A DNA stretch of 64,000 bases. Source: Escherichia coli. GTDB taxonomy: Bacteria > Pseudomonadota > Gammaproteobacteria > Enterobacterales > Enterobacteriaceae. Of this stretch, positions 23,822-52,372 are shown piece after piece. The DNA lies in the NCBI RefSeq assembly GCF_011045215.1, contig NZ_CP049201.1. One strand, written 5' to 3'. Within the stretch, counting starts at the first letter, position 1; each line of letters begins with the position of its first letter. The notes beneath the pieces were generated by a model. The model worked only from the letters and a program-made list of their open reading frames with translations. It did not search any database and had not been told where the DNA came from. Position numbers and translations under genes: made by a program.

Positions 23822-23839
23822 GGGTTTAAGGAGCGCCTT

Positions 23840-32269: not shown

Positions 32270-32279
32270 AGGAGCCATC

Positions 32280-33275: not shown

Positions 33276-34280
33276 ATGACCATCAATTTGAAAAAACGCA
33301 ACTTCCTTAAACTGCTGGACTACACCCCGGCAGAGATCCAGTACCTGATCGATCTCGCGATCAAACTGAAAGCGGCCAAAAAAGCCGGACGAGAAAAACA
33401 GACCTTGGTTGGCAAAAACATTGCCCTGATTTTTGAAAAAACCTCCACCCGTACCCGCTGTGCTTTCGAAGTGGCTGCGTTCGACCAGGGGGCGCAGGTG
33501 ACCTACCTCGGCCCAGGCGGATCGCAAATCGGCCATAAAGAGTCAATGAAAGACACCGCCCGTGTGCTGGGCCGTATGTATGACGGCATCGAATACCGTG
33601 GTTACGGTCAGGCCATCGTTGAGGAGTTGGGCAAATACGCGGGCGTACCGGTGTGGAACGGTCTGACCGACGAATTTCACCCAACCCAAATCCTCGCAGA
33701 TTTGATGACCATGCTGGAACATTCCCCGGGCAAAAAACTGTCGGAACTGAGCTTTGCCTACCTTGGCGACGCACGCAACAACATGGGTAACTCCCTGATG
33801 GTGGGGGCTGCCAAAATGGGGATGGATATCCGTCTTGTAGCCCCAAAATCCTTCTGGCCGGATGTGGTGCTTGTTGAACAGTGCCGTTCCATCGCGGAAG
33901 AGACGGGCGCACGTATCACCCTGACCGATGACGTGGAAGAAGGCGTGTGGGGAACGGATTTCCTCTACACCGATGTTTGGGTCTCCATGGGTGAACCGAA
34001 AGAGGCGTGGACCGAACGCGTCAGCCTGATGAAGCCTTATCAAATCAACGCTGACGTGATGAACGCCACCGGCAACCCGAACGTCAAGTTCATGCACTGC
34101 CTGCCAGCCTTCCACAATGAGCACACCAAAGTGGGCCGAGAAATTGAGATGGCATACGGCCTGAAGGGACTGGAGGTGACGGAAGAGGTCTTCGAATCCC
34201 CTAACTCTATCGTCTTTGATGAAGCAGAAAACCGCATGCATACCATTAAAGCGGTCATGGTGGCGACACTCGGCGACTAA
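33276..34280 (+). CDS. arcB: Ornithine carbamoyltransferase (catabolic)
   Basis: STRTR carbamoyl-phosphate binding motif and HCLP motif. Confidence 0.9.
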
Positions 34281-34327
34281 TCACCACCCGGTGCGTCGTA
34301 GGGTGCACCGGGTCTCAGGAGAACATC

Positions 34328-35731
34328 ATGGGTAAGTTCAAATTTCCCTCCGCATATACCATTCTCTTTTTTCTGATTGCCATCGTTGCCGTCCTGACGT
34401 GGATCATTCCAGCCGGGCAGTATCACATGGCAATGAACGAAGCTCTCGGCAAGGAGGTTCCTGTTGCCGGCACCTATGCACACGTAGAGGCCAATCCGCA
34501 GGGACTGATTTCAGTGCTGATGGCCCCAATTGCCGGGTTGTATGATCCAGACTCCGGTCAGGCTAGGGCGATAGACGTTGCGCTGTTTATTCTGATCATC
34601 GGAGGATTCCTCGGGATCGTCACCAAAACCGGGGCCATTGACGCCGGAATCGAGCGCGTCACCACCCGACTACGTGGTCGCGAAGAGTGGATGATCCCGA
34701 TCCTTATGGCGCTGTTTGCTGCTGGCGGTACAATTTACGGCATGGCCGAAGAATCCCTGCCGTTTTATACCCTGCTGGTGCCGGTGATGTTGGCAGCACG
34801 CTTCGACCCTGTGGTAGCCGCCTCCACCGTGCTGCTCGGCGCCGGGATCGGCACGCTCGGTTCCACCATTAACCCTTTCGCGACGGTGATCGCCGCCAAT
34901 GCAGCCGGGATCCCCTTCACCAACGGTATCACCTTGCGTGTGGTGGTGCTTGTCATCGGCTGGATAATCTGCGTGACATGGGTGATGCGCTATGCCCGGA
35001 AAGTTCGCAAGGAGCCGTCTCTCTCCATTATTGCGGATAAACAAGAGGAGAACCTCGCCCACTTCCTCGGCAATAAAAGCGAACAGGCTCTGGAGTTCAC
35101 CCCGGTACGCAAAATTATTCTGGTGATTTTCGCCCTTACCTTCGCGGTCATGATCTACGGCGTGGCGGTGCTGGGTTGGTGGATGGCGGAGATCTCAACG
35201 GTATTTCTGGCCAGCGCAATTATCATCGGCCTGATCGCCCGCATGAGCGAAGAGGAACTGACCTCTACCTTTATCAACGGCGCGCGAGATTTGCTGGGCG
35301 TTGCACTGATTATCGGTATCGCGCGCGGTATCGTAGTGATCATGGATAAAGGTATGATTACCCATACTATTTTGCACTACGCCGAGGGAATGGTTACTGG
35401 ATTATCGACAGTAGCATTCATCAACGTGATGTATTGGCTGGAAGTGGTGCTGTCGTTTCTTGTGCCTTCTTCGTCCGGTCTGGCCGTTCTGACGATGCCG
35501 ATCATGGCACCTCTTGCCGACTTCGCTAACGTCAACCGCGACCTGGTAGTTACGGCTTACCAGTCTGCGTCCGGTATCGTTAACCTGATCACTCCCACCT
35601 CTGCCGTTGTGATGGGCGGACTGGCTATCGCCCACGTGCCTTACGTGCGATATCTGAAATGGGTTGCGCCGCTGCTTGGGATATTAACAGTGGTAATTAT
35701 GGTGGCATTAAGTCTGGGGGCATTGTTGTAA
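34328..35731 (+). CDS. YfcC-family membrane transporter (putative arginine/ornithine antiporter of the ADI operon)
   Basis: 467-aa polytopic membrane protein, co-directional and immediately downstream of arcB. Confidence 0.7.
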   Translation: MGKFKFPSAYTILFFLIAIVAVLTWIIPAGQYHMAMNEALGKEVPVAGTYAHVEANPQGLISVLMAPIAGLYDPDSGQARAIDVALFILIIGGFLGIVTKTGAIDAGIERVTTRLRGREEWMIPILMALFAAGGTIYGMAEESLPFYTLLVPVMLAARFDPVVAASTVLLGAGIGTLGSTINPFATVIAANAAGIPFTNGITLRVVVLVIGWIICVTWVMRYARKVRKEPSLSIIADKQEENLAHFLGNKSEQALEFTPVRKIILVIFALTFAVMIYGVAVLGWWMAEISTVFLASAIIIGLIARMSEEELTSTFINGARDLLGVALIIGIARGIVVIMDKGMITHTILHYAEGMVTGLSTVAFINVMYWLEVVLSFLVPSSSGLAVLTMPIMAPLADFANVNRDLVVTAYQSASGIVNLITPTSAVVMGGLAIAHVPYVRYLKWVAPLLGILTVVIMVALSLGALL

Positions 35732-35811
35732 TTTGCCGGATGGCGCTGCCCCTATCCGGTCTACGGAATGGTGTGGTGTCACCGGTTATTTCGAGAACTG
35801 AATATAGGATT

Positions 35812-36291
35812 ATGATGGATTACGAAGATTTCTCTCCCAAAGAGCAACTACAGCTAACGGTCTGCCAACGTCTGATTGCAGAAAAGAGCTATTTTTCCCA
35901 AGAGGAGCTCCGCCGCGACTTACAGGAGCGTGGTTTTGAGACAATCAGCCAGTCCACCGTTTCTCGTCTGCTCAAGTTGTTAGGTGTCATAAAAATTCGA
36001 AATGCCAAAGGGCTAAAAGTCTATTCGCAGAATCCACAGTTGCGTCCGGCTCCTGATGCCGCGCGCACTGTGTCCGAAATGGTGGTGAGCGTTGAGCACA
36101 ATAGAGAATTTATCCTTATCCATACCGTTGCTGGATATGGCCGCGCAGTGGCACGTGTCCTTGATTATCACCAGTTGCCAGAAATTTTAGGCGTGGTGGC
36201 CGGAAGCAGTATCGTCTGGGTCGCTCCTCGGATGGTGAAGCGTGTCGCTCTGGTGCATAAGCAAATTAATTATTTACTAAGAACGTATTAA
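35812..36291 (+). CDS. argR: ArgR-family arginine-responsive repressor
   Basis: 159 aa from MMDYEDFSPKEQLQLTVCQRLIAEKSYFSQEELRRDLQERGFETISQSTVSRLLK... winged-helix N-terminus plus C-terminal oligomerisation domain. Confidence 0.8.
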   Translation: MMDYEDFSPKEQLQLTVCQRLIAEKSYFSQEELRRDLQERGFETISQSTVSRLLKLLGVIKIRNAKGLKVYSQNPQLRPAPDAARTVSEMVVSVEHNREFILIHTVAGYGRAVARVLDYHQLPEILGVVAGSSIVWVAPRMVKRVALVHKQINYLLRTY

Positions 36292-36538
36292 TATTCACAA
36301 ATGCCCGCTTGTATTGACTAATACATACATTAAATCGCTTCATTCGCAAAGCGAGTTTCCTATAATGCCTGATAATGTGCCAGGAGGGAGCATAGTCAAG
36401 CGTGTACGATATAACGTCTCACCGCGTCTGAAATCAGACACTGGCTTGGTGTTTTATTCCCGTTGCTTAATCTATTCCTTGGGTCCCTCATTTGAGGGGC
36501 TTTTTTTGCTCGGCATCAGGAGATAAACATGAATCCGT

Positions 36539-36688
36539 TTTATCAAAAAATAAATGCCCCTAGCCGCGAAGTGCTGGAGCTCGTTCTAAAAATCGCAGCA
36601 AAAATTGAAAACCATTCCTCAACCATCGCGGCGTTCGTATGCGCCGCCAATGATGCGCCCGAAAACGCGTCAATATGAGTTCGCCGGA
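36539..36688 (+). CDS. Small ORF (49 aa, MNPFYQKINAPSREVLELVLKIAAKIENHSS...) with strong RBS; speculative
   Basis: aggagataaacATG; its 3' end is the sequence that is repeated at 36946..37016 and 27975..28024. Confidence 0.25.
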
Positions 36689-36874
36689 ATATTACTCTGC
36701 TGTCGGGAGTTGAACGCCTGACGACAGGAAATGAGCCAGGCCAGCCACCACGCGGGCTGACAGCGAATCAGAACCTGAGTCAGCCCGGAGCCATTCCCGG
36801 GGCTGCACTTCATCACCTGCCACCAGTACCCGTGTCAGTACTTCGCGACCTGACGCAATTATCCGACTCAGTCC

Positions 36875-37003
36875 TTCAGAACCCGCCTCCGATACCAGCC
36901 TGGCGCTCGCCCCTGCGCAAGCAAAATAAATCAACCATTGTCAGACTGCGATCATTCGTATGCACCGCCGATGACGCGCCCGAAAACGCGTCAATATGAG
37001 TTC
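36875..37003. repeat. Direct repeat copy B, partner at 27908..28024; embedded in a block of sub-repeats (36655..37040)
   Basis: Same sequence as copy A; cgcccgaaaacgcgtcaatatgagttcgccggaatattac occurs at 36655 and 36975, with tatgagttcgccggaatattac again at 37021. Confidence 0.7.
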
Positions 37004-37064
37004 GCCGGAATATTACTCAATATGAGTTCGCCGGAATATTACGCCTAGCTGGGGGTTTTCTGTG

Positions 37065-37095
37065 CACAAAAAAATCCCGGCATAATGGCCGGGAT
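37065..37095 (-). terminator. Rho-independent terminator after cdiI (end of cdiBCAI operon)
   Basis: Hairpin atcccggc-ataatg-gccgggat preceded on plus strand by A-run (T-run on the transcribed minus strand). Confidence 0.6.
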
Positions 37096-37110
37096 TTGCG
37101 AGCTTTCCCA

Positions 37111-37485
37111 CTATTTCTTGATTCCTAAACGGAACATATCAGTTGGGAATAAAGGTTGTATTATCACTTCATCATTAAAAATGAATAATTTGGGCGATAA
37201 AGCTGTTACGTCATAGATATTTTCAGCGATTAATCTTAGATTTGACCTAAAAACTGGAATACTTGCATCATCTACAAAGACAAACATGTCATCGTTTTTT
37301 ACAGAGTTTGCACACAATAGCTCATCAAAACTCTCATAATCAGAATGCCAGATCTCTGACCAAGTAACACTTCCTTTCGCGAGAGGGTACTTATTTAAAA
37401 TGCCCAGAGCCTCCTGCTGAGCCAGCCCCTCTACTATATTAAAATCAGCACTCAGTGCTTCCCGACACTCATCAAATAAAGTCAT
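37111..37485 (-). CDS. cdiI: CdiI immunity protein cognate to the CdiA C-terminal toxin
   Basis: 124-aa ORF starting 6 nt after the cdiA stop; AT-rich relative to cdiA. Confidence 0.7.
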   Translation of the reverse strand: MTLFDECREALSADFNIVEGLAQQEALGILNKYPLAKGSVTWSEIWHSDYESFDELLCANSVKNDDMFVFVDDASIPVFRSNLRLIAENIYDVTALSPKLFIFNDEVIIQPLFPTDMFRLGIKK

Positions 37486-37490
37486 TTGCT

Positions 37491-40400
37491 CTACCTGTTT
37501 AGCTGTTTCAATATTGTTTCAAAAGACTTTTCATTGCCTTCAAAAGGTATGACTTGCTTCACCGCTTTTCCAGGGCCTTTACCCTGCGAGTAATCCCATA
37601 TATTGATGTGTGTGCCTTTTTCAGGATCATAATCAACACGCCAACCAACTTTTCCGTCGCTGGATTGCCGCCCTATGACTTTCCCATTACCAGCGCTGAC
37701 TTCCAAACGTCCGATAACTGGCTTAGAGTCCGCTCCTAAATTACCTACAAGATCCAATGCCTTGTTTCGAGCAGTTTCCCAGTTTTTCTCTGGCTTGAGG
37801 ATTTGTTCAATTTTAGGCTGGGAATTCCCTTTAACCTTACTAATTCCCCCAAATGCTGACGCCGCAGCGCTCGCGACTATTCCCGCCTGAACTTCATCCA
37901 AACCGTATTCTTCTTGGAGTGCTTCCGAGACTTTGTTGGTCGCGACAACCCCTTCAGCCTGCATTTGCTGCGCAAAAGTCGCCGTCAGATCGTAGACCAT
38001 TTTGATCGGGATATCTTCACCCAGAGCACGATCTATTGCCTGCTTCACCGCCAGACTGTCAGTCAGTACATCACCGTATTTCTGCTGGCAGGTTGCCGGG
38101 CTGGCTGCACAGTCACTGATCAGTTGCTTTTGCTGTGCCGTACTCAACTCTTCGTACTTTTTGATAATACCGCCGCAGTCACCGCCTTTCGCCTGACAGG
38201 ACTTCATTTCAGCGGACCAAGCATCTATCTGCTTACTGCTCAGATAGTTATTCTCAACAGTTGTCTTACCTGACTGTGCGCCGGCTACCGCTGAAGCCCC
38301 CGAGTCTCCCACCAGACCACCGGCCAGGCCGGCAGCAACCGTTGCCAGTGTCGAGACCGTCTGCTTCTCTGTCTCGCTCAGTTCACTCACCGGCTTACCG
38401 TACATCTGTGTGGCTATCATTCCCACCACCTCGCCGGTGGCTGCACCTGCAGCACCGGCAAGGGCATTCTTACCCTGTGCCAGAGACAGGGCGGCATTCA
38501 CTACTGCATGAGCTGCCACACGCCCCGCACCGTCCGGGGTGGTCTGTTTGATAATTTCAGCAATATACGGCGCTGCACCACCTGCCAGGGCTGCACTCAG
38601 ATTACCGCCGGCCAGTCCCTGTACCGCTGCCGTTGCGGCCTGTATCGCCTGCTGGTATTTGCCTCCCGTTCCAAAACCGGAGGCTGCCATACCGTTATTG
38701 TAGGCCCGCTGTGCCACATCCTGTTCCGTGTACGGTTTTCCTGCTGCCTCAAGCTCTGCGCGGGCCTGATTCAGTGCTGCCGGGTCCCGCTTCGCTTTCT
38801 CACCGGCTATCTGTCCTTCCGTTCTGGCAATATCTGCCACCTGGTTACCAATCTCACCAATGAGTTGCGCCTGCTGCAACCGCTGCTGCTCTTTTTCCCT
38901 GTCAAAGATGGGGGACAGCGTCTGGTTTGCATGCGCAACGTCACGGTTCAGGTCTGCCACATCCTGTTTCTGGCTCTGTGTATCCCGGATAGTGATATTC
39001 CCGGCAGACACAGCCGACTGCGTGGTACTGTCCGCATGGCCTTCATGATTTGCACCGACCAGCAGATTGTTTGCCATGTTCCCCAGGAAATTTCCGGCAA
39101 CACTGCCACCGGTACTGAGCCCTGCACTCTGATGTTCCGTTTTAAAGTCAGCCCGGTTTTCAGTGTCACTGAAGCCCAGTGTGCCGGTATCCAGCCTGTT
39201 TTTATCTGCCGTTGCCGTGGACGCAATCACCGCACCGTTCAGTTGCGTATGCTGTCCGGTGGTGACATCAAACCCGCCCCTGCCGGCAAAAATCCCCGTC
39301 TGCTCCTGTACACTGTCGTAGTTACTGTGCATTTTATCCCGGCTGAGGTTCACACTCGCCGAACCGCTCATGGACCCGAAAGTGAAGCTGCCTCCGGCGC
39401 TGGCATTCTGCTGCTTACTGTCATAACGGTCACTGTCCTGCTCACTGGTCAGTGTCAGATGACGACCGGCATCCACTTTCACCGTTTCACCGCCAGCCTG
39501 CGCGCCGGTAAGCGTGGTGTCCCGCCCGCTGATAATGGTCAGCCGGTTTCCCGCATCCACCGTGGTTTCTGTATGGGTGGTACCGTTGCCTTTTTCACTG
39601 CCCTTACCCTGGTTTGCGCTGGCTGACAGACTGAAACCAGGCCCTCCGGGCCCCACACCGATACCGACACCCACGCTGCCACCACTGGATGTGTTCTTTC
39701 CTTCCAGCTTTGACGTGTTTTCTGCTGATACCAGATTCACGTCACGGTTTGCCTGCAGCAGAACGTTGTTCCCGGCCTTTATCTGACCGCCCTGTATCGT
39801 CAGGTCACCATCCACGCCCTTCACGCCGGAGCCGGTGGCCTGAATACTGAGGTTATTACCTGCGGTCAGTGTACTGCCCTTCGCCACCGTCTGCTCTGAC
39901 TGCTGTTCTGATTTCGAAGACTGGCTGCCGTAAGAGAGGCTGATACCCACGGTATTGTTATTCTCTTTCTGGTTGCCCTGTGCTTCTGCCAGTCGTCCGG
40001 CCTGCACGGCCTGAGCCCCCGAGAGCGCGGCCTTCACCCCCTGCAGGGCTTCAAGCCGGCTGTTTCCGGCAGATTTCGCCGCCTGTACGGTCTCCACCGT
40101 CGTGTTCAGGGCGCTGCCCGCTGTGCCGGACAGGGCAAGCGTCAGACCGGAGGTTTTCTGCTCCACCGTATGTGTCTGCACATGCCGGTCAGTGGCGGCG
40201 GTAATGCTGACCTCCTTACCACTGAGTGCCATGTCCCTGCCGGCAATCAGGTCAGAGCCGTTGACGGTCAACCGGTTACCTGCCTGAAGGGAAACATCAC
40301 CGTGAACACTCCCCACCGTGCTGCCTTTCTGCGTGGTGTCTGTTGCGGTGTCCGTGACCTTCAGACTCTGGCTGCCCACGCTGAATCCCACACCTCCGGA

Positions 40401-43400
40401 GCTCATCAGTCCGGATTTTTTCTCCTGTTTCAGGTGTGTTTCACGGTTGCTTTCTGTCAGCGTTCCGATACTCAGGTTATTTCCGGCAGCCAGGGAGACA
40501 CGGTTATCCCCGGCCACACTGCTGCCCGTGACGTTCAGATTATGTCCGGCACCGATACTGACCGTATCCCCGTTCAGTTCACTGCCCGTCATGGTCCGGC
40601 GGTCAGTGACATCATGCGTGGTAGTGGTGGTTTTCGATAACATCCCGCTGTTGCCGGTCACTTTATGGTATTCATCCAGCGAGCGGGTATTCTGTGCACC
40701 GGTCAGCGTCACGTCATGACCCGCCATCAGGGCCAGGCCTTTCTGAGCTGACAGCGATGCCGCCTGTGACGTCATATCCCGTCCGGCGGTCAGCGTGACA
40801 TCACCGTTACCGGCAAGTGTGCTGCCCGTATTCTGTGTGACGCCCTGCGACAGACGATTATTTTTATCCCAGGTAATATTGTCCTGCGCGGATGTGGTCA
40901 CCGTGGAAAGCGTCATATCCCTGCCGGCACTGAGTTGTGTCAGGCTGTCCTTACCCTGATTCACCACCGTTGCCGCCGTCAGATTCATATCCCGTCCGGC
41001 CTGCAGCACCAGTCTTCCCTGGTCGTTCTGCACATACACGCCGGCCACACTGTCGATACTGGTACGTTCAAAATGGTTCTGCCCGGCGTCGCGCTGTGCC
41101 GTACGGGTGGTGGTGGTCAGACTGATATCCCGTCCGGCCATCGCCAGCAGGCTGTCCGTGGCCTGCAGCAGCCCGCCGGTACTGTTAATATCCGTCCGGG
41201 CCGTCAGGCTGACATTTGCTCCCTGAATGGTGCCGGCCTGGTTGTGAATGTTTTCTGCACTGAGCTGCACGGCCTGCTTCCCGGCCAGTTTACCGCTGTT
41301 AAACAGGTCACCATCCAGCTTCATCACCATGTCCCTGCCGGCAATCAGCGCACCGGCACTGTTCACATCACCGGGTTTTACACGGGCATACACCTGAGGT
41401 ACCTGAACCGTCTGCGTGCTGCCGTCCGGCAGTGTCACCGTGGTGTTAACCAGCCAGACAATATCACCGGTCAGTAACGCCATCTGCTCAGCAGTCAGCG
41501 CCACACCTGGTGTCAGGTTGTATTGCTTACCAAATGCAATACCCGCATCCATTAACGCCTTAAACTGCTCTTCATCATTACTGTATCCGTCCAGGTACCG
41601 TTGCCCGGTCAGAGCGACAACCTGCTCACGAATCAGACGCTGTTCGTAAAAACCATCCCCCAGGCGTTTGAGCATGTTATCCCCGTTCTGAGAAAACGCC
41701 TTCTGCATGTAATCACTGCCCAGCCACGTCTTCTGGTTCGTAAAACGCGGGTCCGTTTCAACCAGATATGGCACATTCACTGCCGGATTTGTTTTAAACA
41801 GGCTGCTGTCCGGCAGACGGGTATCCGGCCCGGCAACATGGATACTGCCCTGAGGTGCGCTGACTTCAAACTGCTGCCCCGGCAACAGAATGACCGGTTC
41901 ACCGGCTGACACCACCGGGCGAAGCGGTATCCGGTCAGTAACGGCTACTGTCGCATCCACATTTCCGGTCAGTCCTGTCTGTACATCCGTTCCCTGTGGC
42001 TTCAGGGGAGAAAGCGTGACCTGGCTGCCCTGAACCTGTCCGTGGCTGGTGAGCTCTCCCGGCTTCAGCGTGATGGTCTGAATGACGGGGGGCGGCTCGT
42101 AAGGGGAAATTCTTTCCCCCTGCCTGTCATTTTTATTTTTTCTTTTTATCCGGTAATAATATGTGGATGTCCCTTTATCAGTAACATGGCGCTCTCCGCT
42201 GACACTGACGTTTTCCACATCACCGGCCTGCATATCCAGCAGACCACCTGCAACCACCTGGCTCTTGTCATTAAGCAGTTTGTCTGCCACAACCGTCATG
42301 CCGGCACCGGACAGTATTTTCCCCGGGTCGGAGTCTTTTACCCGGGTTTCCTCCACGGTACGGGTGTATTCATATTTTGTGAACCGGTCGTTGTTATGTC
42401 CGGTATCATCCGGCGTGTTCAGGTTCAGCAGTCCATCAGAGGAGTTGTTATCAATGAACACCCCCTCATCTTTTGCATTCCAGCGGACATCTGACCCGCG
42501 ATGCTGATACTCAGTCACCTTTTCCGTGGAGACCACCACGCGCTCCGTGGTGAAATGGTCATTGACGTTATTGATTTGCCCGGCACTCAGTGTCAGGGAA
42601 CCGGCGGCTTCAATCGTGGCACTGTGATTATTCAGTACACCGGCTTTCCCCGTGGCGGCGCCATTCGCATCCAGCATGCCACCGATATGCATATCACCTG
42701 CACTGTAAATCAGGCTGTGCGTCCGGTTATTCAGGGTCTGTACCCCCAGGTCCACACGCTCACGTCCGGCCAGCGTCGCCGCCACGCCATTTTCATCCAG
42801 ATTATTAAATGTGGCAGCGCTGACACCAACAGCATCGCCGTAGATTCGCCCGGTACCGGAATTCGTCAGGGTGTTCGCCTGAAGATGCGTATATTTCCCG
42901 TCAATCAGCCCACGGTTCAGCAGTGTGTCCGTCACGTTAAGCCAGGTCTGCCCGGCACTGATTTCACCTTTCTCTGTGTTTTCAAGGCGGATGCTGTTCA
43001 GGTCAAGCCGGCTGCCTGCCAGCAGGCTGCCGGTATTAGAGACATCGCCATTAACGGAAAGCGTAAGGTTTCCGTTTGCAATGGTCTGACCACTGTTACT
43101 GAACGCTGTGTTACTTTTCAGCGTTATATCGCCCGGCGAAAGCAGTTTCCCGTCACCACCAAGCTGACCGACATCCACAGAGACTGACTGCCCGGCCTTA
43201 ACCACGCCGTCACGGTTCGAAAACGCCAGCTGACGGCCACTGACAGACAATGTCGCGCCGGAAGAGAGCACGCCATCATTATTACTGAGCGTCCTGTCTG
43301 CCATAACCGTAAGCGCCCTGTCTGCCAGAATACTGCCCTCCTGGTTATCAAGGTCCTGCGTCGTGATGTGTATTGTCTGCGCTTCCAGCCCCTGGCCGGT

Positions 43401-46400
43401 ATTCTGCGTGTGGCGATTGATAAACTGCAGGGCGTTCAGCGTAATGGCAGAACCACTGCGAATCAGACCAGAGACGTTGTCCACAACGCCCCGTACACTG
43501 TCGAACAGAATGTCGCCCACAGACTGTATCTGTCCGTGGCTGTTCTGCAGGCCTCCCGTATGCAGACGGAGTTCACCTTCACTGACCAGCCGGCCACCCT
43601 CACGGTTATCCAGCGAGGTGGTGCTCAGGTCAGCTGTCGTTTTCGCCCCCACGGTCCCGCCCCGGTTATCCATTGCTCCGGTACTGACAGTCAGTTCCTG
43701 CAGGCTGTTCAGCGTACCCCCTCTGTTATCCAGCGTCCGGCCTGCGCTATTAATGCTGATGCCTTTCCCCTGAATAAGACCGGACTGATTGTTCAGCGCC
43801 AGACTGTTCCGGCCGGGCAGACCGGTCGCCACAATCTGACCATTCGCCACCACCTGACCGGATGTATTGTTAACCACGCCTGCAGTCAGGGACAGCGCAT
43901 CTCCCGACAAAAGCACACCGGCAGTGCTGTCCAGTGTGCCGGCATTCAGCGTCATCGGGCCCTGACTGATAACCCCGCCCCGGTCACCACTGTTACGGTT
44001 GCTCAGTGTGTCAGCACGGAGATTCAGTGTGGCACCGCTCTGTATCAGACCACCTGCATCATTGCTGATATCCGTCGAGGAAAGGGTCAGTGACTGCTGT
44101 GCCACCAGTCTGCCGCCCTGATTATCAGAGCGGGTGACATCCAGCCTGCTGTTACCGTTGCTGACCACCGTCCCCTGCTGATTTTCCAGCACATTCAGGT
44201 GCGCATTCAGGTCCCCGCCGGCGGCAAGCGTCCCTTCCTGATTACTGACATCGCCACCACTCAGCAACATATCCGTCCCGGCCTTCAGTGCGCCTTTCTG
44301 GTTCATCAGCGTACCTGACGATATCTGTAATGACGCCTGACTCCCCAGCACGCCCTGACGGTTATCGAGCGTTCCGGCGTTCAGGGTCATATCCTTCTGA
44401 CCCGCCATAAATCCCTGCTGGTTATTCAGCATACCGGCCCGTACTGTCAGGGTACCGGCGCTGCTGATACCACCCCGTGTTTTCGTGTTCCGGTTACTGA
44501 GAACCCCGTCCTGTACATCCAGCGTCATGTCACTGCCGGACTGAATCAGACCATCATCAGAGACCAGTTCGCTGCCTGACACAGACAGCGTTTTCTGTGA
44601 AAGCAGTCTGCCGGACGTATTATCCAGCGCACCATCCAGCGTCACGGACAGCCCGTCAGACACCACCGTACCCTGGTGGTTATTCAGACTCCCTGCCGAA
44701 ATATCCAGCCTGCCGGCGGACTCCATTCGTCCCTCAGTATTGCTGACAGCCTGCTGTGTTTTTATCCTGCCCGTTCCGGCAGCAGCTGAAATCAGTCCGT
44801 TGTCGTTATTCAGTGCCTGTGTATTAATCAGGATGTCACGGCTGGCAATCAGACTTCCCTGCTGGTTATCCACGGCGCCGGTTGTCCTCACCTGCAGACT
44901 ACCTGACTGCGCCGCCTGCACTTTCCCCCTGCGATTATCAAGGCTCAGTGCATCCAGGCGCACCGCGCCATTTGCCGCAAGCAGCCCTTCCCGGTTATCC
45001 ACACCTCCCGGCAGGTTCAGTGAAAAATCCCCTGTTCCCGTCTGAATCAGTTTACCCCTGTGGTTTGACAGGCTCTGTGCTGATATCTGCAGTGTGTCGG
45101 CATTTATCGTGCCGTCATTATTGCTGAACTGCCCGGCAGTCCGGGCGGAAAGCGTACCGGCACTCAGTTGCGCATTTTGCGTGAACAGATTTCCGCTGCC
45201 TGCATCCAGCTCAGTATGTTGTCCCTGTATCCGGCTGTTGCTTAAATCCAGCCCCTGCCCCTTCAGTTGCATGTCCCCACCGGACAGAACCTGTCCGTGT
45301 GCCGCCAGTTCGCCGGTGGTACTGACAGTCAGGTTGCCCGCTGCCGCCAGACGTCCGTCATCTTTCACCCCGGCGGCCAGCAGACTCCGCTCACCGCCGG
45401 TCAGACGCGCTGTCTGAATCCGGGTGTTGCGACGTGATGCCACAGAGCCTGTATGGGTGAATACACCATCACTCTGTATCTGCGTATCCTGCCCCGCATA
45501 AACAGAACCACTGTTATGCAGCTCCCGGGTTGTCACCAGATGCACATCCGTTTTCGCACTGATACTGCCACTGTTTTCAATTCGTCCGTCAGCCGTCAGG
45601 GTAACCGCCCCTGCCTGCGCACCAATATGACCGGCGTTACGAACACCCACCCCCGTTTCCGTACCGACAAGGCGAATTTTTCCGGCATACATTCCACCAA
45701 GGCTGGACACATCCAGCGCCACCTGTGGCTGCGAAGAGGCATCAGCGGCTTTTTTCTCAGTCTGCCCGTGTGCAATATCCACATTGTTACGTCCGGTGGT
45801 CACTTTCAGGTCCTGCGCCCAGATACCCGCATTAATCTTCACAGACCGGGCAATGATATCGGTATAATCCGTGCGCGAGGCATCCATCCCTTTGCCCGTA
45901 ATCTGAATCTCACCACGTTCAACACTGAATCCGGTCAGACTGCCGTTTTTCATCTGAGGCTGCCCCGTGGTCAGCGTGGCCCGGTTCGCATTAATAAAAC
46001 CGCACCCGTCGCAACTGATGCCGGCCGGGTTCGCAATCACCACCTGCGCCTTTTTCCCGGCAACCTCAACAAAACCGTTCAACTGGCTGGGATTGCGACT
46101 GTTCACTTCATTAAGAATGATTCGGGCCTCTCCCTTCGCCAGCCACGGGTTACCGGCAACCATGCCGCCCAGTTGGGTCTGCACATTTTTATGCGAGTTA
46201 TTCAGAATGACACCCTGATGACTGACATCAAACTGACTGTAAGTATTGTGCGATACCCCACCTGCAGAAGGTGTCTGGATATTGACCTGAGGAATGCCGC
46301 TGGCTGTCTGCGTAATCGTGGGCTGCTGATGCCCCGGTGCGCCATGGTCTGCGACAATGCCTGCAGCACTGACAGAATGCACCATCCCCGAGGCCAGCCA

Positions 46401-46565
46401 CAGGGAGAATGCAAGCGATGTGACACGGCAGATACGTTGCCTGCGTGGATATCCTGTACGGGAGGAGGGTGATGCACCGGCGCGACCGGAACGGGCAATA
46501 TCTGCCACCACCATCAGCATTCCCCGGGCTTTGTTAAAAATAATGCGGTAACAATTTTTGTTCAT
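37491..46565 (-). CDS. cdiA: CdiA contact-dependent growth inhibition exoprotein (two-partner secretion TpsA), 3024 aa; CT toxin 37494..38246 after VENN at 38247..38258
   Basis: Extended signal peptide MNKNCYRIIFNKARGMLMVVADIA, TPS domain, long hemagglutinin-type repeats, VENN motif (TTVENNYLSSKQ) 251 codons before the stop. Confidence 0.9.
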   Translation of the reverse strand: MNKNCYRIIFNKARGMLMVVADIARSGRAGASPSSRTGYPRRQRICRVTSLAFSLWLASGMVHSVSAAGIVADHGAPGHQQPTITQTASGIPQVNIQTPSAGGVSHNTYSQFDVSHQGVILNNSHKNVQTQLGGMVAGNPWLAKGEARIILNEVNSRNPSQLNGFVEVAGKKAQVVIANPAGISCDGCGFINANRATLTTGQPQMKNGSLTGFSVERGEIQITGKGMDASRTDYTDIIARSVKINAGIWAQDLKVTTGRNNVDIAHGQTEKKAADASSQPQVALDVSSLGGMYAGKIRLVGTETGVGVRNAGHIGAQAGAVTLTADGRIENSGSISAKTDVHLVTTRELHNSGSVYAGQDTQIQSDGVFTHTGSVASRRNTRIQTARLTGGERSLLAAGVKDDGRLAAAGNLTVSTTGELAAHGQVLSGGDMQLKGQGLDLSNSRIQGQHTELDAGSGNLFTQNAQLSAGTLSARTAGQFSNNDGTINADTLQISAQSLSNHRGKLIQTGTGDFSLNLPGGVDNREGLLAANGAVRLDALSLDNRRGKVQAAQSGSLQVRTTGAVDNQQGSLIASRDILINTQALNNDNGLISAAAGTGRIKTQQAVSNTEGRMESAGRLDISAGSLNNHQGTVVSDGLSVTLDGALDNTSGRLLSQKTLSVSGSELVSDDGLIQSGSDMTLDVQDGVLSNRNTKTRGGISSAGTLTVRAGMLNNQQGFMAGQKDMTLNAGTLDNRQGVLGSQASLQISSGTLMNQKGALKAGTDMLLSGGDVSNQEGTLAAGGDLNAHLNVLENQQGTVVSNGNSRLDVTRSDNQGGRLVAQQSLTLSSTDISNDAGGLIQSGATLNLRADTLSNRNSGDRGGVISQGPMTLNAGTLDSTAGVLLSGDALSLTAGVVNNTSGQVVANGQIVATGLPGRNSLALNNQSGLIQGKGISINSAGRTLDNRGGTLNSLQELTVSTGAMDNRGGTVGAKTTADLSTTSLDNREGGRLVSEGELRLHTGGLQNSHGQIQSVGDILFDSVRGVVDNVSGLIRSGSAITLNALQFINRHTQNTGQGLEAQTIHITTQDLDNQEGSILADRALTVMADRTLSNNDGVLSSGATLSVSGRQLAFSNRDGVVKAGQSVSVDVGQLGGDGKLLSPGDITLKSNTAFSNSGQTIANGNLTLSVNGDVSNTGSLLAGSRLDLNSIRLENTEKGEISAGQTWLNVTDTLLNRGLIDGKYTHLQANTLTNSGTGRIYGDAVGVSAATFNNLDENGVAATLAGRERVDLGVQTLNNRTHSLIYSAGDMHIGGMLDANGAATGKAGVLNNHSATIEAAGSLTLSAGQINNVNDHFTTERVVVSTEKVTEYQHRGSDVRWNAKDEGVFIDNNSSDGLLNLNTPDDTGHNNDRFTKYEYTRTVEETRVKDSDPGKILSGAGMTVVADKLLNDKSQVVAGGLLDMQAGDVENVSVSGERHVTDKGTSTYYYRIKRKNKNDRQGERISPYEPPPVIQTITLKPGELTSHGQVQGSQVTLSPLKPQGTDVQTGLTGNVDATVAVTDRIPLRPVVSAGEPVILLPGQQFEVSAPQGSIHVAGPDTRLPDSSLFKTNPAVNVPYLVETDPRFTNQKTWLGSDYMQKAFSQNGDNMLKRLGDGFYEQRLIREQVVALTGQRYLDGYSNDEEQFKALMDAGIAFGKQYNLTPGVALTAEQMALLTGDIVWLVNTTVTLPDGSTQTVQVPQVYARVKPGDVNSAGALIAGRDMVMKLDGDLFNSGKLAGKQAVQLSAENIHNQAGTIQGANVSLTARTDINSTGGLLQATDSLLAMAGRDISLTTTTRTAQRDAGQNHFERTSIDSVAGVYVQNDQGRLVLQAGRDMNLTAATVVNQGKDSLTQLSAGRDMTLSTVTTSAQDNITWDKNNRLSQGVTQNTGSTLAGNGDVTLTAGRDMTSQAASLSAQKGLALMAGHDVTLTGAQNTRSLDEYHKVTGNSGMLSKTTTTTHDVTDRRTMTGSELNGDTVSIGAGHNLNVTGSSVAGDNRVSLAAGNNLSIGTLTESNRETHLKQEKKSGLMSSGGVGFSVGSQSLKVTDTATDTTQKGSTVGSVHGDVSLQAGNRLTVNGSDLIAGRDMALSGKEVSITAATDRHVQTHTVEQKTSGLTLALSGTAGSALNTTVETVQAAKSAGNSRLEALQGVKAALSGAQAVQAGRLAEAQGNQKENNNTVGISLSYGSQSSKSEQQSEQTVAKGSTLTAGNNLSIQATGSGVKGVDGDLTIQGGQIKAGNNVLLQANRDVNLVSAENTSKLEGKNTSSGGSVGVGIGVGPGGPGFSLSASANQGKGSEKGNGTTHTETTVDAGNRLTIISGRDTTLTGAQAGGETVKVDAGRHLTLTSEQDSDRYDSKQQNASAGGSFTFGSMSGSASVNLSRDKMHSNYDSVQEQTGIFAGRGGFDVTTGQHTQLNGAVIASTATADKNRLDTGTLGFSDTENRADFKTEHQSAGLSTGGSVAGNFLGNMANNLLVGANHEGHADSTTQSAVSAGNITIRDTQSQKQDVADLNRDVAHANQTLSPIFDREKEQQRLQQAQLIGEIGNQVADIARTEGQIAGEKAKRDPAALNQARAELEAAGKPYTEQDVAQRAYNNGMAASGFGTGGKYQQAIQAATAAVQGLAGGNLSAALAGGAAPYIAEIIKQTTPDGAGRVAAHAVVNAALSLAQGKNALAGAAGAATGEVVGMIATQMYGKPVSELSETEKQTVSTLATVAAGLAGGLVGDSGASAVAGAQSGKTTVENNYLSSKQIDAWSAEMKSCQAKGGDCGGIIKKYEELSTAQQKQLISDCAASPATCQQKYGDVLTDSLAVKQAIDRALGEDIPIKMVYDLTATFAQQMQAEGVVATNKVSEALQEEYGLDEVQAGIVASAAASAFGGISKVKGNSQPKIEQILKPEKNWETARNKALDLVGNLGADSKPVIGRLEVSAGNGKVIGRQSSDGKVGWRVDYDPEKGTHINIWDYSQGKGPGKAVKQVIPFEGNEKSFETILKQLNR

Positions 46566-46580
46566 TCTGATAAACCTGAC

Positions 46581-47108
46581 TTATCTCTCCGGCACATCCA
46601 CAGCAAGCGGGTGCTGCACACGCCACTGGCGCGCCTCTTCACGACTGACCTGTGCACCCCGGAAATTCATCACCCGCAACCCGGTCTGCTGCCCACGGTG
46701 GTACAGCGAACGCCAGCACAGACGGGGAAAAATATCCTGCCGGACAAGACGACTCATATCCGGGGTATGTCCAAAAGGGGCAATCCAGTCACAGACCCAC
46801 ATCCGGTCGCCGCTGTTCCAGTCCGACTGAGGCATGAGAATTGCCGGCTGCGTAAGATAACGCGCCTCTGCCTCCGGGCTGAGCCAGGCCTGGCTCATGA
46901 AGAAAACCGGTCGCCCCTGCTCTGTTGCCACCACATACTGTCGGTGCTTAATCACCGGCAGCAGCAGGTCCGGCAGGGTATGCAGTGGCGCATCACGATG
47001 CAGGGGGGAGTGCATCCACAACCAGACGGCCGCCCCCAGGACTTCCGCCTCATTGACCGGCTCACCGGAATACAGGGGACTCAGAACGTCATATTTCCCG
47101 TTACGCAT
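46581..47108 (-). CDS. cdiC: CdiC, HlyC/RtxC-family toxin-activating lysine acyltransferase
   Basis: 175-aa ORF between the TpsB and TpsA genes; size and position typical of RTX-activating acyltransferases. Confidence 0.7.
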   Translation of the reverse strand: MRNGKYDVLSPLYSGEPVNEAEVLGAAVWLWMHSPLHRDAPLHTLPDLLLPVIKHRQYVVATEQGRPVFFMSQAWLSPEAEARYLTQPAILMPQSDWNSGDRMWVCDWIAPFGHTPDMSRLVRQDIFPRLCWRSLYHRGQQTGLRVMNFRGAQVSREEARQWRVQHPLAVDVPER

Positions 47109-47117
47109 GAAACTTTC

Positions 47118-48857
47118 TCAGAAATCCCGGAACAGATTAAAACCGGCTGTCACATCACTCGTCATAAAACCCGCCGGCTTTGAAAACGGACGACCGATGA
47201 AAACGTCATAATCCGTACTGAACAGTTGCCCCCTCAGCCCCACAACACCACCAGCCAGATGACGTCCCACCAGGTATTCACTGCCGGCTCCCCCCACCTC
47301 GCCGTAATCCATTCCCAGATATAACTCCTGCTCCGGCAGTGGCGTACGCCAGGCCAGGTCGTTGCGGATATACCAGCCGTTACTGGCATTCAGCGTTCGC
47401 TCCCCGTCAAAACCACGAACCGTCCAGCGGTTACCGATGGCAAACTGTTCCTGTGGGGTCAGCGGGGTATTGCTCAGCTGGCGCTGATACCGGAAGGAAT
47501 AACTGAAGGGCTGCCCTGCAAGGGTAAAGGGCAGATTAAAGGATGCATTCAACTGCAGGATCTTACTGAGCGCCGTTGCCTCACCGAACGTTTCTTCCGG
47601 CGCCGGCTGTGCACCAAACCAGCGGGTTCCCCGTTGCCAGCTGACACCAGCATCCAGTGTGGCCTGAGAAATATAATGACGGTGCTGCAGCCCAAGTCGC
47701 CAGGCCGCTGTCTGCCGGCGCTGCACCTGGATTTCCGTATCATTAATGTAGTTACGCGACCTGCGGGCCTGAACATCGTAGGTCAGCACCGTTTTCTGCG
47801 TCCCGTTACGGTGCAGTACCCGGCTCAGCTGCATACCCAGATTCTGACTCTCGCCACTGTACTGGTAATCCTCAACCGCACCAGCTACCGTCTGATGGTA
47901 ATCGTAATCACTGGCGGTGACGGAAAACTGCCAGTAGCCGAAAGGCACAGAGTAATGGGCCGTGTAGTTTTTACTGCCCTTACCCCCGTAATGTGGAAAA
48001 TTACGGGTGGCAGAAACATACAGCAGGTCACTCAGGGAAAAAGGATTATCCAGAGAAAATGTTATACCACCGAGATAACGCCCTGTGCTGCGGGTACCTG
48101 AATCATCAAGCGAAAACCCCAGTCGCCAGTATTTGTCCTGTTTGCGGGTAATAAGAATGTCACTTTCCCCTGGCTGCTCACCGGGTACAATTTCCATATC
48201 AGCCTGCACACCCGGCAGTCGTTGCATATTCTCCAGCCCCTGCTCAATGTCCCGTAAATCCAGCAGAGAACCTTCGTGTGCCGGGAATGAGGAATACAAC
48301 TGAATATAGTCATCACTGTCCGGTGTCAGACGCACATGTCGCACAACACCGGGAATAACAACCAGCCGGAGGATACCGCTTTTTAAATCCTGCGAAGGTG
48401 CCAGAACACGGGTGGTGACATAACCATGATCGACCAGACGGTTCTGCAATGTACTCATCAGCAGATTAATTCCTTTCGCCCCCAGGCAATGCCCGACCGC
48501 CCCGTTGGCGATTTTTTGTAAAGGCAGCCAGTGTGGTAACGCATCAGCCCCCTCCAGTTCCGTCTGTTTAATCTGAAAACAGGGCGTTTCAACAGGAAAA
48601 TTAATCTTACGGGCAAAAGAGCCAGGTGCAGAAAGGCGAACATCAGGGGCTGAAGGCGTCAGTTGTTGCTCAAGGGCTTCCTGACGCTGCTGCTGAATGA
48701 TAAATGCATTATCTCCGCTACGCCGGACATCCGCGGCCTGAAGAGATAAAGGCGATAATAAAACAGACATCAGTGTCAGTGACAGCAAGGACGGACAGCG
48801 CCGGAATACGCTTTGTTCCTCAGCCCTCTCGTTCCTGCAACATAATTTTCCAGTCAA
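47118..48857 (-). CDS. cdiB: CdiB, TpsB/FhaC-family outer-membrane transporter
   Basis: 579-aa ORF with signal peptide ([12 protein letters not shown]), POTRA-like region and C-terminal beta-barrel ending in F; true start may be an internal ATG ~87 nt downstream. Confidence 0.85.
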
Positions 48858-49448
48858 ACGAAAAACCTTTTATTCATGTCATACCAACAATCACCAGCCT
48901 CCTGACGATACCTCCCACCATGTTTTGCGATGGTACGCTACCGCCCTTCCGGTATTTACCCGCATCAACCGGTACCAGAATGTTGAGTAATAAATTTGTC
49001 AACTCTGAATTGGTTTAATTTTGATCATTATAGAATGAAGATCTGAAAATTCTCAATATTGCAGACATATCGATCGATATGTAGTTATCACGTAGTTATT
49101 TATTCCAACTAATATCGCAAAAGCAGCATATTGCAAAACTTATAACCACGGAGAACAAAAAACGACAGAAAATTATTCCGTAAGATGCTTCAAATACAGC
49201 CAGTCAACACTGAAAAAAGTGATTTTTGATTAAAATCATTGAAGTTTATGCAGTACAGAATCTGAGCGGTTCTCAGCGAAAGTCAGAAGAAAGGGAGGTG
49301 AGGTAAAAGGCAGAAATCAGAGTGACAGGAATGCACAAAAAGCAAAAAAAAATCAACAAAACAATAAATTAACATACCCCGAAAAAGCATCCGCAACGTA
49401 CCGGGTAATAACAACAATATCGTGTAAAACAACATTGTTCCGGAAGTT

Positions 49449-49640
49449 ATGTCTGAAGATATCCCGTTACCCAAAGTCGGTCAGCGATACAGAGACGATC
49501 ATGGTGCGCTTGTCACCGTAACCAGTGTTGAGGAAACCCGGGTGGTATTTATGCGGGACGGCTATCCACATCCCTGTATGCGGCCAATGTACAACTTTCC
49601 AGGAAAATTCAAACCCGAACCCCGGGAAGAAACAGAATAA
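49449..49640 (+). CDS. Small hypothetical protein (63 aa)
   Basis: ORF only. Confidence 0.3.
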   Translation: MSEDIPLPKVGQRYRDDHGALVTVTSVEETRVVFMRDGYPHPCMRPMYNFPGKFKPEPREETE

Positions 49641-49692
49641 AACGAAATTCCTGCCGGCAATCACACTGCCTGATGGCAGCATAATCCACTTT

Positions 49693-49926
49693 TTAATTCT
49701 CATCCCCGAAGACAAGCCCAGAAAACCACTCCGGGTGTTCACTGTATGCCGTGTTCAGCGCATCCCAGGAAACGTTTATATAAAAGCTGTCCTGCAATCT
49801 GCGGGTAACAACTTCTGCCAGGCGATTCCGGTTATCCGCCAGTCCGGCATAACCTCTCTCTGCCAGCCACTCATTCAGTTCATGTTCCAGAGACAGATTG
49901 ATAATATCGTAATCGGACCTTGCCAT
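49693..49926 (-). CDS. Small hypothetical protein (77 aa)
   Basis: ORF only. Confidence 0.3.
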   Translation of the reverse strand: MARSDYDIINLSLEHELNEWLAERGYAGLADNRNRLAEVVTRRLQDSFYINVSWDALNTAYSEHPEWFSGLVFGDEN

Positions 49927-50012
49927 TCCCGTTTCCTTAGCACATGTTTTCAGGCACGGGTAAAAGTATAAAGAATGTCATACTGCTGCCAGAGCCCCCC
50001 CTGATGGTCGTA

Positions 50013-50636
50013 TCAGAGATGGTATGCCGGCACTTTGCGGGTTGTTCCCGTCAGGTTATCGTGCACCTCCACATTCGTTGTCACTACCGGCATTCCGCTC
50101 TGTCTTAATCTCAGGACATCAGCCGCAATACGCTGACTGCCAGACCAGAACAGCCCGTCCAGTGCGGTCACCAGTAAACCTGCTTCCAGCGCATACTTCA
50201 GCCGTTCACGGGACGCTTTCACTTCCCGGGCAACCTGCTGATATGGCAATGATGTGTTTTCATTCCCAACCACGCGACGAATACGGTGAGACAGATGATA
50301 CCGGAATGTATCCGGCACACCCGAAAGGCTGGCCTTCAGGCTGTACACGCAGCCAAACCGTTTATCGTTGAACACCACATTTTTCTGGCTGATGCCCCAT
50401 TCTTCACGCAGCGCGGCAATCAGTTGTGGTGTCCGGGTAAGCAGCAAGCGAAAAGGCAGCTCAAAACTGGTGACGTAATCCACATTCAGCAGTGCAATAC
50501 GCAGCCGTTCTTCTGGCCCGGCCCCTGTCTGCCGGCACTCATCCAGAACATCCTGCCACTGCCGACGAAGACGTGGAGATTCATTCAGTTCTGTAAAACA
50601 GTATTTATTCACCAGATAATCAATTCGTGTACGCAT
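50013..50636 (-). CDS. Hypothetical island protein (207 aa)
   Basis: ORF with reasonable coding potential; no motif recognised. Confidence 0.5.
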   Translation of the reverse strand: MRTRIDYLVNKYCFTELNESPRLRRQWQDVLDECRQTGAGPEERLRIALLNVDYVTSFELPFRLLLTRTPQLIAALREEWGISQKNVVFNDKRFGCVYSLKASLSGVPDTFRYHLSHRIRRVVGNENTSLPYQQVAREVKASRERLKYALEAGLLVTALDGLFWSGSQRIAADVLRLRQSGMPVVTTNVEVHDNLTGTTRKVPAYHL

Positions 50637-50895
50637 AATATAGATTCAGGAAACAATAAAAGCTGAATAAGCCCATATTTCATTGGGAAAACTGCAGTGT
50701 CAATACCAAAATGTTGCTCAAATCGTAGTAGAAGTATGGGATGTAGCGTTCAGGGTATTAAGAAACTTTTAGTTGACTACGATTGGTAAAATACATTAAT
50801 TTTTATTGCGGTTGCGTTTAATAGACTGCGGAGCGTGTTAACGCTCTAAATAAAAGTACTTAAGATGGCATAAATGTTACAAGACCAGGATAATT

Positions 50896-51291
50896 ATGGC
50901 TGAATTTACTGTAAGATCGAAGGATGAACTCGAAAAAGCTCAAAACAGCAGAGCTGAAATTATAATTATTGAAGGAGAGTTAGCAAATAAAATTAAAAAA
51001 GCAAAGGCTGTAACAAAAGTAAGTGGTGTTGTTATTGCTGCCATGATCGCAACTTGTGCTACTATTCCACTCACTGGTGGAGGTTCTGTTTTAGCTGTTA
51101 GTTCTTTAGCTGCATTATCCGGACTTGATATCGCTGTTATTATTGCTGCAGCATCCATTGGTATTGCTCTGGTTATTACTGTTTTCCGCGATTACGAAGA
51201 AATTGAATTTAGCAATGGAAAGATGATATTAAAGTTAAAACGTAAAAAAACTGAGTCTACAACTGACAAAAATGAGAAAAAGCAGAAGTGA
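50896..51291 (+). CDS. Small membrane protein with glycine-zipper-like hydrophobic core and lysine-rich tail (131 aa)
   Basis: Strong RBS region (ccaggataattATG); AT-rich. Confidence 0.5.
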   Translation: MAEFTVRSKDELEKAQNSRAEIIIIEGELANKIKKAKAVTKVSGVVIAAMIATCATIPLTGGGSVLAVSSLAALSGLDIAVIIAAASIGIALVITVFRDYEEIEFSNGKMILKLKRKKTESTTDKNEKKQK

Positions 51292-51598
51292 AAGGTCTGT
51301 GCATCGGAATATGAACATATTTTAGTAATATTTTAATAAATCGTAAAGCCTCTATATTCAGAACCACGAAATAGAGGTGTTTTAAACTGCAACTGTTATC
51401 TCAATTTTTATCGAGGCGCCATTAAAACAAATACCCCGTTCTGCTGTTTTCTGATTATGCCATGAGATTAAAAACACTAATTTTTGATTGAATTGTATAT
51501 ATACATTGTAATACAAGATTTAAATACATATTTCTTCTTTTTTATCTGTAATCTATTATTATCAATAATCACATGAACAATATCAGAGGCAACACATT

Positions 51599-52372
51599 AT
51601 GAATAAAGCTGAAGTTCTGGAAAAAGGTTATTGGATTGAAATCAGTATTGATGCATATGCACAAAAAGTTAAGGGTATATCACGAGATGACTACCCACCA
51701 TTACGTTGTATCTCATGCGAGAAACCTGTCCATGATAGCGGATTAGTCACTCCCAATCCTGATTATAGCCCCAGATTCTCTCATTCCGCTTCACCAGAAA
51801 ATAAAGAGTTCTGTCCCCTAAGCGCAAGATCTCAACGTTTTTCTGGTTTTTCAGGTAATGAACGCTCTGCTTCAGCAGAAATTGCAGTATCTCGCCGAAA
51901 TCAATTCATGCAATTTGATAACCTCTATCGGGCCTGGGTTGTTTGTAGAGCATTAAGGGGAGGTGAAGGGAAGCTTGATCAAAAATCATTCATTCGGATG
52001 GTCAGGATCGCGGATAGTTTTGGGATCTGGCATTATAGCTATATGCCTGACTGGGGAATCCCTCTTATGCTAATGTTAATGGATAACCACCCGACACCAA
52101 ATGGTAAATCAACTTTTTTCTATTCATTAAAAAAAGAACGTGTTCGAAAAGGTGTAAAATGGCAAGATCTAAATGTCAGACTTGAAGCACATTGGGTAAA
52201 TGGTGGTAACCGCATAGTTCCAAATAAAGATAAAAAAGCTTCATTCTTGCTCACCATTCCATTTGCTAAGTCTGTTATTGATGAAATACTGAGTAAAGAA
52301 AATCTGTCATGGTGCTCAAAAAACTCTCTACCAATATTGCATTCTTTTAGCATTAGAGCTTTAACCACTTAA
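51599..52372 (+). CDS. Hypothetical protein (257 aa), AT-rich
   Basis: ORF co-oriented with 50896..51291; no motif recognised. Confidence 0.5.
   Translation: MNKAEVLEKGYWIEISIDAYAQKVKGISRDDYPPLRCISCEKPVHDSGLVTPNPDYSPRFSHSASPENKEFCPLSARSQRFSGFSGNERSASAEIAVSRRNQFMQFDNLYRAWVVCRALRGGEGKLDQKSFIRMVRIADSFGIWHYSYMPDWGIPLMLMLMDNHPTPNGKSTFFYSLKKERVRKGVKWQDLNVRLEAHWVNGGNRIVPNKDKKASFLLTIPFAKSVIDEILSKENLSWCSKNSLPILHSFSIRALTT

Follow-up and report, generated by a model that had tools for sequence, protein, structure and literature searches.

The 64,000-nucleotide stretch of Escherichia coli contig NZ_CP049201.1 (assembly GCF_011045215.1) analysed here, hereafter the window, carries a contact-dependent inhibition (CDI) locus that we take, with a probability of about 0.92, to be an intact E. 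coli class IV system (cdiBCAI) operating by the delivery mechanism proposed below. A locus of this kind is already known: its architecture is that of class IV cdiBCAI, and its toxin/immunity pair is that of Protein Data Bank (PDB) entry 5T86. All positions are window coordinates, and the cdi genes all lie on the minus strand. Four co-directional open reading frames (ORFs) follow one another, separated by 9, 15 and 5 nt, between a promoter-like site and a terminator-like hairpin. They correspond to a TpsB/Omp85 outer-membrane transporter (cdiB, 47118-48857, 579 codons from a TTG start), a toxin-activating lysine acyltransferase of the TAAT/HlyC family (cdiC, 46581-47108, 175 aa), a class IV CDI effector (cdiA, 37491-46565, 3024 aa) and its cognate immunity protein (cdiI, 37111-37485, 124 aa, isoelectric point (pI) 4.3). 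An original prediction, made from the sequence alone, had proposed these gene identities and this operon layout. The ORFs lie where it placed them, and their Pfam and NCBIfam matches fit the identities proposed. The terminator that it placed at the end of the operon is found as an intrinsic-terminator-like hairpin (minus strand, 37097-37072) with a 10-bp stem including 6 GC pairs and a subsequent T-run, starting 14 nt past the cdiI stop. A candidate sigma-70 promoter (minus strand, 49027-49056; TTGAGA-18-TATAAT, 11/12 match) lies about 170 nt upstream of cdiB; it is a consensus match, and the count of such sites is not above the shuffled expectation. Among the tests run, we found no evidence contradicting the class IV assignment.

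Class IV cdi loci have been defined by a diverged FHA-1/receptor-binding domain (RBD) and by the additional cistron cdiC, which separates cdiB from cdiA (Halvorsen et al. 2021, mBio, PMC8510554), and a 2022 review lists cdiBCAI as an established alternative arrangement (PMC9086364). In the published system, the receptor of CdiA-STEC4 is the inner core of lipopolysaccharide (LPS), and CdiC-STEC4, using a His37/Asp107 dyad, transfers 3-hydroxydecanoate onto Lys1467 in a tyrosine-rich basic stretch of the RBD; loci with cdiC always have a lysine at the position of Lys1467, and loss of cdiC lowers inhibition about 100-fold (PMC8510554). The window locus shares with cdiBCAI-STEC4 (E. coli STEC_O31) the B-C-A-I order, a CdiC of 175 aa, the His37/Asp107 pair, the tyrosine-rich basic motif and the acceptor lysine. 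Loci aligning with it at about 95% identity are present in no fewer than 178 complete E. coli genomes, where the small gene is already annotated as "toxin-activating lysine-acyltransferase".

The cdiC ORF sits exactly where the extra cistron of class IV is expected, between cdiB and cdiA. Its product matches the Pfam HlyC model (PF02794) over its full length (positions 1-127 of 127, E-value = 4.6e-32), so that the acyltransferase similarity proposed for the 46581-47108 product is confirmed. The catalytic dyad is retained at His37 (codon 46998-47000) and Asp107 (codon 46788-46790), and 173-174 of the 175 positions are identical to those of the CdiC proteins from four further class IV loci. The further suggestion that cdiC implies a lipidated type of CdiA agrees with the published class IV system (PMC8510554). 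CdiC shares the whole HlyC model and the His/Asp dyad with the other PF02794 proteins HlyC, CyaC and ApxC. Unlike theirs, however, its predicted substrate is the RBD of a TpsA protein and not an RTX protoxin, the acceptor context is unrelated, and the lipid is 3-hydroxydecanoate in STEC4 as against C14-C16 for the RTX acyltransferases.

The class IV RBD of the window CdiA (41769-42566, minus strand; residues 1334-1599) is equivalent to Val1328-Pro1589 of STEC4, for which the comparison sequence was taken from Fig. S3 of PMC8510554. In the acceptor region, the window sequence YYYRIKRKNKNDRQGER aligns with YYYRIRKKGK-DKQGEK of STEC4. Lys1476 (codon 42138-42140), within this segment, stands opposite the acylated Lys1467 of CdiA-STEC4 both in the MAFFT and in the pairwise alignments, and a lysine is kept in all five loci compared. 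Lys1476 is therefore the predicted acyl acceptor, the acylation itself being taken from PMC8510554.

The RBD is also where the window locus departs most from the published one within the carrier. It is 73.5-75% identical to that of STEC4 over 158 residues (about 74%), and carries a three-residue insertion (GHN) and the acylation motif KRKNKN instead of RKKGK. Along the identity profile against another class IV locus, that of strain F2_407_2_2 (L001), the RBD (42000-42500) forms the sole deep intragenic trough, with 80% nucleotide identity versus 95-99% over most of the remainder. Class IV RBD DNA was found in 181 of 5426 complete E. coli genomes (about 3%). The window allele accounts for 11 of the 181 (95-99% identity) and a STEC4-like allele for the other 170 (80-90%); the latter is 12 nt shorter and has the acylation motif RKKGK or KKKGT, and the acceptor lysine is present in both alleles. 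Strain RM11911, whose C-terminal (CT) region is different, shares 98.6% RBD identity with the window; STEC4-like alleles share 86-88%. This divergence is a point against equating the window system with the published one in every respect: with so divergent an RBD allele and a changed acylation motif, the efficiency of acylation and details of the receptor could differ.

The other carrier components are those expected of two-partner secretion (TPS) in CDI. CdiB exhibits high-scoring matches to Pfam ShlB (1.6e-109), POTRA_2 (7.4e-23) and POTRA_3 (2.8e-17), and is an Omp85/TpsB transporter with POTRA domains. Its start is ambiguous between the TTG at 48857, which gives a basic n-region before a hydrophobic core and a cleavage-like site (LQA/AD), and the ATG of codon 30 (48770), which is the start chosen by RefSeq in cdiB homologues. 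CdiA combines a TPS secretion domain core (45957-46250, minus strand; residues 106-203, TIGR01901, 1.5e-21), 12 FHA repeat stretches (TIGR01731), an FHA-2 (Fil_haemagg_2) repeat region (39216-41255, minus strand; residues 1771-2450, PF13332, best 2.3e-45) and a pre-toxin PT-VENN domain (38247-38390, minus strand; PF04829, 3.8e-10, and 5.7e-05 in a second scan). The PT-VENN domain is closed by the VENN codons (38247-38258; residues 2770-2773), and the TPS domain, the FHA repeats and the VENN-delimited variable CT that together characterize a TpsA effector are thus all present. Identity to STEC4 is 98% in the TPS domain, 95% in FHA-2, 78% in the pre-toxin domain and 73.5% in the RBD, and the CT is unrelated; sequences beyond VENN vary between the class IV loci compared. 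The E. coli cdiBAI loci of classes I-III (EC93, UPEC536, STEC3) have in common with this locus the two-partner secretion, the VENN-delimited CT/immunity cassettes and their recombinational exchange, but they are without cdiC, recognise proteins (BamA, OmpC/F, Tsx) as their receptors and have a diverged FHA-1 and RBD.

The VENN motif was correctly placed by the original prediction in a 3024-codon cdiA, 251 residues before the end, and the CT therefore spans 37494-38246. It consists of two parts. The C-terminal toxin domain (37494-37811, minus strand; 106 aa, pI 9.2) is identical at all 106 positions to chain A of PDB 5T86, the "CdiA toxin" of a CDI complex from E. coli A0 34/86 released in 2017. 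CdiI, encoded directly downstream and beginning 5 nt after cdiA, is identical at 121 of 124 positions to chain I, the partner co-crystallised with that toxin, and matches Pfam PF24172 (CdiI_ImmP, "CdiI immunity protein EcoliA0-like") with an E-value of 6.6e-34. The fold predicted for the toxin domain superposes on 5T86 at 0.6 Å; this model was built from a 48-sequence alignment and replaced a single-sequence AlphaFold2 model that was unusable (pLDDT 52). The PDB entry has the same toxin and CdiI, but covers the toxin domain only, with neither entry domain nor carrier. By contrast with the window, STEC4 carries the Ntox25 proton-gradient dissipater and a different immunity protein. The CT had been described as unassignable, which no longer holds: with a toxin domain identical to 5T86_A and an immunity protein in a named Pfam family, it is characterised in structure, if not in function. 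The accompanying statement that the toxin activity is unknown remains literally true.

The N-terminal part of the CT (37812-38246, minus strand; 145 aa, pI 4.8, two cysteine pairs) is presumed to be the domain for entry into the cytoplasm, on the basis of general CDI CT architecture. It exhibits weak similarities only, to the N-terminal part/first disulfide hairpin of the EC869 o11 CT (4g6u, E-value = 0.42) and to DUF6862 (E-value = 0.0014), and accompanies the toxin only in its closest enterobacterial relatives (6 of 150 representatives).

The CT/cdiI cassette was recovered from 122 complete E. coli genomes and is carried by more than one kind of effector. L001 is another class IV locus with the same CT as the window, and the class IV locus L004 combines a STEC4-like RBD with an Ntox25 CT. 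Strain mip270_22 matches the window at 99.85% from 30042 to 38259, through an arginine-deiminase flank, cdiI and the CT, and past 38259 switches to the 3289-aa CdiA of a cdiBAI locus without cdiC. The V codon of VENN occupies 38256-38258, so that VENN marks the limit of the homology. This is a textbook cassette swap at the classical CDI recombination boundary. Orphan CT/immunity modules were not found downstream of cdiI.

Gene content and intactness, family memberships, the catalytic and acceptor residues, the identity to 5T86 and the cassette boundary at VENN come from the present analysis. For acylation, binding to LPS, delivery and the chemistry of the toxin, the mechanism that we propose for the locus relies on the literature on its homologues. 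CdiB would export CdiA, which would form a beta-helical filament with the RBD at its tip. CdiC would acylate Lys1476 in the tyrosine-rich basic motif of the RBD, the acyl group being, if STEC4 is a guide, 3-hydroxydecanoate drawn from acyl-acyl carrier protein, and the lipidated RBD would bind the LPS inner core of an adjacent cell. FHA-2 would then enter the outer membrane of the target, and the CT past VENN would reach the periplasm, from which the 145-aa part may take the toxin across the inner membrane by way of a membrane protein. Once inside, the basic 106-aa domain with the 5T86_A fold would stop growth, likeliest as an RNase acting through His2986, Asp2978/2980 and arginine or lysine residues. 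In sibling cells, the acidic CdiI would bind and neutralise it.

The proposed RNase step is weak, and we regard an RNase or translation-targeting activity of the toxin as an evenly balanced proposition. The toxin belongs to a family of 449 representative clusters at 50% identity (E-value ≤ 1e-3), and of 121 matches covering the full length, 105 have the end of the domain coinciding exactly with the C-terminus of the protein. Its carriers include VENN-type CdiA and Rhs proteins in Gram-negative bacteria, and LXG/type VII secretion system, pre-toxin-TG and Hint/intein-type proteins in Gram-positive bacteria (45-67% identity). Despite its 449 clusters the toxin domain has no Pfam-A model, and its immunity partner has one (PF24172). 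Among 48 diverse homologues, N16, H68 and G77 (toxin-domain numbering) are invariant, and conservation reaches 90% or more at E12, R15, K44, R48, R58, D60, D62, K65 and N70. In CdiA numbering the conserved residues include R2933, N2934, K2962, R2966, R2976, D2978, D2980, H2986 and N2988, with H68 equivalent to H2986 and D60 to D2978. The set of acidic, histidine and basic residues by which BECR RNases are recognised is thus present at the level of sequence conservation.

A 2026 preprint on Rhs2-SciX of Salmonella Typhimurium ranks 5T86 first among the structural neighbours of the effector and of its immunity protein, calls the fold BECR and states that 5T86 has no accompanying mechanistic paper; it also reports that Rhs2 toxicity needs the equivalent aspartate (D60 here, "D209" in its numbering of 5T86) and a histidine, and that Rhs2 binds EF-Tu (bioRxiv 10.64898/2026.05.10.723254). 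Rhs2-SciX differs from the window pair in being delivered by a type VI secretion system/Rhs route; the similarity is distant, the Rhs2 structure is a model, and EF-Tu binding was shown for Rhs2. The fold searches of this analysis lend no independent support to membership of the toxin in the BECR group of barnase, EndoU, colicin D/E5/E3 and RelE: with Foldseek against the PDB, nothing apart from 5T86 scored below E = 0.1. Further results weigh against the RNase step. A profile search of the PDB with the toxin family recovered 5T86 alone; neither the toxin domain nor any of its 48 homologues has a Pfam family match; the toxin domain has none in NCBIfam, PADLOC or PHROGs, where the remainder of the CT and CdiI were likewise unmatched; and a search of the literature on the A0 34/86 toxin did not find a mechanistic paper. 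A word-indexed homologue search returned fragments only, and Ntox50 (PF15542) matched neither the toxin nor the 48 homologues.

Two sets of names in the databases were considered as clues and rejected. "Ribonuclease YxiD" and "Putative ribonuclease YokI", attached to Bacillus homologues in AFDB, are inherited from the LXG carrier: in B. subtilis 6633 the YxiD-CT that has been characterised is an Ntox50 domain, a tblastn search of a phage collection including SPbeta (yokI) gave no toxin match, and the toxin is without a Pfam family. RefSeq calls the cdiA of mip270_22 "contact-dependent inhibition effector tRNA nuclease", a name that cannot derive from the CT, because the identical window CT matches no NCBIfam model.

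It is a real possibility, although in our estimate one falling short of an even chance, that the toxin is something other than a nuclease and acts by other chemistry, for example by modification or sequestration of a translation factor (EF-Tu), or on another target; class IV delivery would be unchanged. No structural or sequence link of the toxin to a characterised RNase was found, the functional data on its neighbour Rhs2 consist of toxicity mutants and EF-Tu binding and not of RNA cleavage, and the ribonuclease names just discussed stem from the carrier protein. On the other hand, a small, basic, alpha+beta domain with an invariant histidine, conserved aspartate, arginine and lysine residues and an acidic partner (pI 9.2 versus 4.3) is typical of RNase toxins, the CDI toxins with solved structures are mostly nucleases (PMC9086364), and the authors of the preprint class 5T86 as BECR.

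The RefSeq annotation of related loci bears on the intactness of the system. In complete E. coli genomes, the RefSeq/PGAP annotation records "partial/pseudo" cdiA, in three features, and cdiB, in two, at L001 4603-15891 and L003 3188-14371, with the same splitting at L004 3323-14341 and L005 2936-14359. Taken at face value, this splitting would favour the view that the locus is a decayed, non-functional remnant. We judged intactness by a stop-to-stop frame analysis and an indel map against L001. The frames are continuously open in the window and in all four genomes (583, 178 and about 2940-3080 codons), none of the indels relative to L001 breaks a frame, and the catalytic and acceptor residues are intact. 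Judged on the reading frames, decay is already refuted, and we hold it to be very improbable. With every one of these frames open from stop to stop, the "pseudo" fragments are a systematic annotation artefact. We also rejected the idea of the window as a rare intact copy among decayed relatives, the frames of the relatives being intact too.

Least credible is that the system, instead of acting between bacteria, is a ShlA/HpmA-like or RTX-like cytolysin against eukaryotic cells in which a pore-forming TpsA is activated by CdiC: RTX cytolysins are the classical targets of HlyC-family acyltransferases and haemolysins too are exported by ShlB-family transporters, but the polymorphic CT set off by VENN and the immunity gene paired with it match a solved CDI complex, the TPS and FHA-2 regions are 95-98% identical to those of CdiA-STEC4, whose CDI activity is demonstrated, and the CT cassette has been swapped at VENN with a cdiBAI strain.

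The class IV CDI locus lies within a large island that starts beside ghrA (2256-3233) and tRNA-Ser(GGA) (3428-3515), has a G+C content ranging from 36% to 59%, and includes an Ag43/Cah-family autotransporter gene (11779-14703; NF033177, 1973 bits), an Ail/OmpX-family gene (28259-28816) and an integrase gene (60731-61933). A type I restriction-modification operon occupies the plus strand at 18310-27651 (hsdM 18310-20748, hsdS 20742-22088, hsdR 23840-26935). A DarT/DarG DNA ADP-ribosyltransferase toxin-antitoxin pair (22101-22757 and 22742-23821) is embedded between hsdS and hsdR, and hsdR is followed by an M48 peptidase gene (26935-27651). An arginine deiminase cluster (arcA, arcC, argF, a yfcC-family gene and argR, at about 31049-36291) lies between the M48 gene and cdiI. 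Downstream of cdiI, 36634-37018 holds IS66-type end remnants in three copies of TAATATTCCGGCGAACTCATATTGA. In strain F2_407_2_2 the M48 gene directly adjoins cdiI, which makes the 30042-37018 block an insertion/deletion difference between strains. On the other side, the flank upstream of cdiB (48860-58000) is annotated in relatives with a YfjI family protein, an inovirus Gp2 family protein and a TOTE conflict system primase domain. Three island ORFs, 9142-11664 (minus strand, 840 aa), 55241-56692 (minus strand, 483 aa) and 58726-60543 (plus strand, 605 aa), gave no NCBIfam match at E ≤ 1e-5.

The locus itself adds little to what was known, the PDB having held the toxin/immunity pair since 2017 and a 2021 paper having described the class IV type, the LPS receptor and the lipidation by CdiC. 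The RefSeq splitting of intact class IV cdiA and cdiB into "pseudo" fragments could nevertheless mislead surveys of CDI distribution. [quoted passage not shown] It may have an activity or target undescribed for polymorphic toxins, which we think unlikely; separately, the minority RBD allele might alter LPS-core specificity or acylation, which we think unlikely as well. What the window would provide is a clean, intact natural case of the 5T86 toxin borne by a lipidated, LPS-binding class IV effector; and with a near-identical CT/cdiI on an effector lacking cdiC, the exchange of cassettes at VENN becomes visible to the nucleotide.

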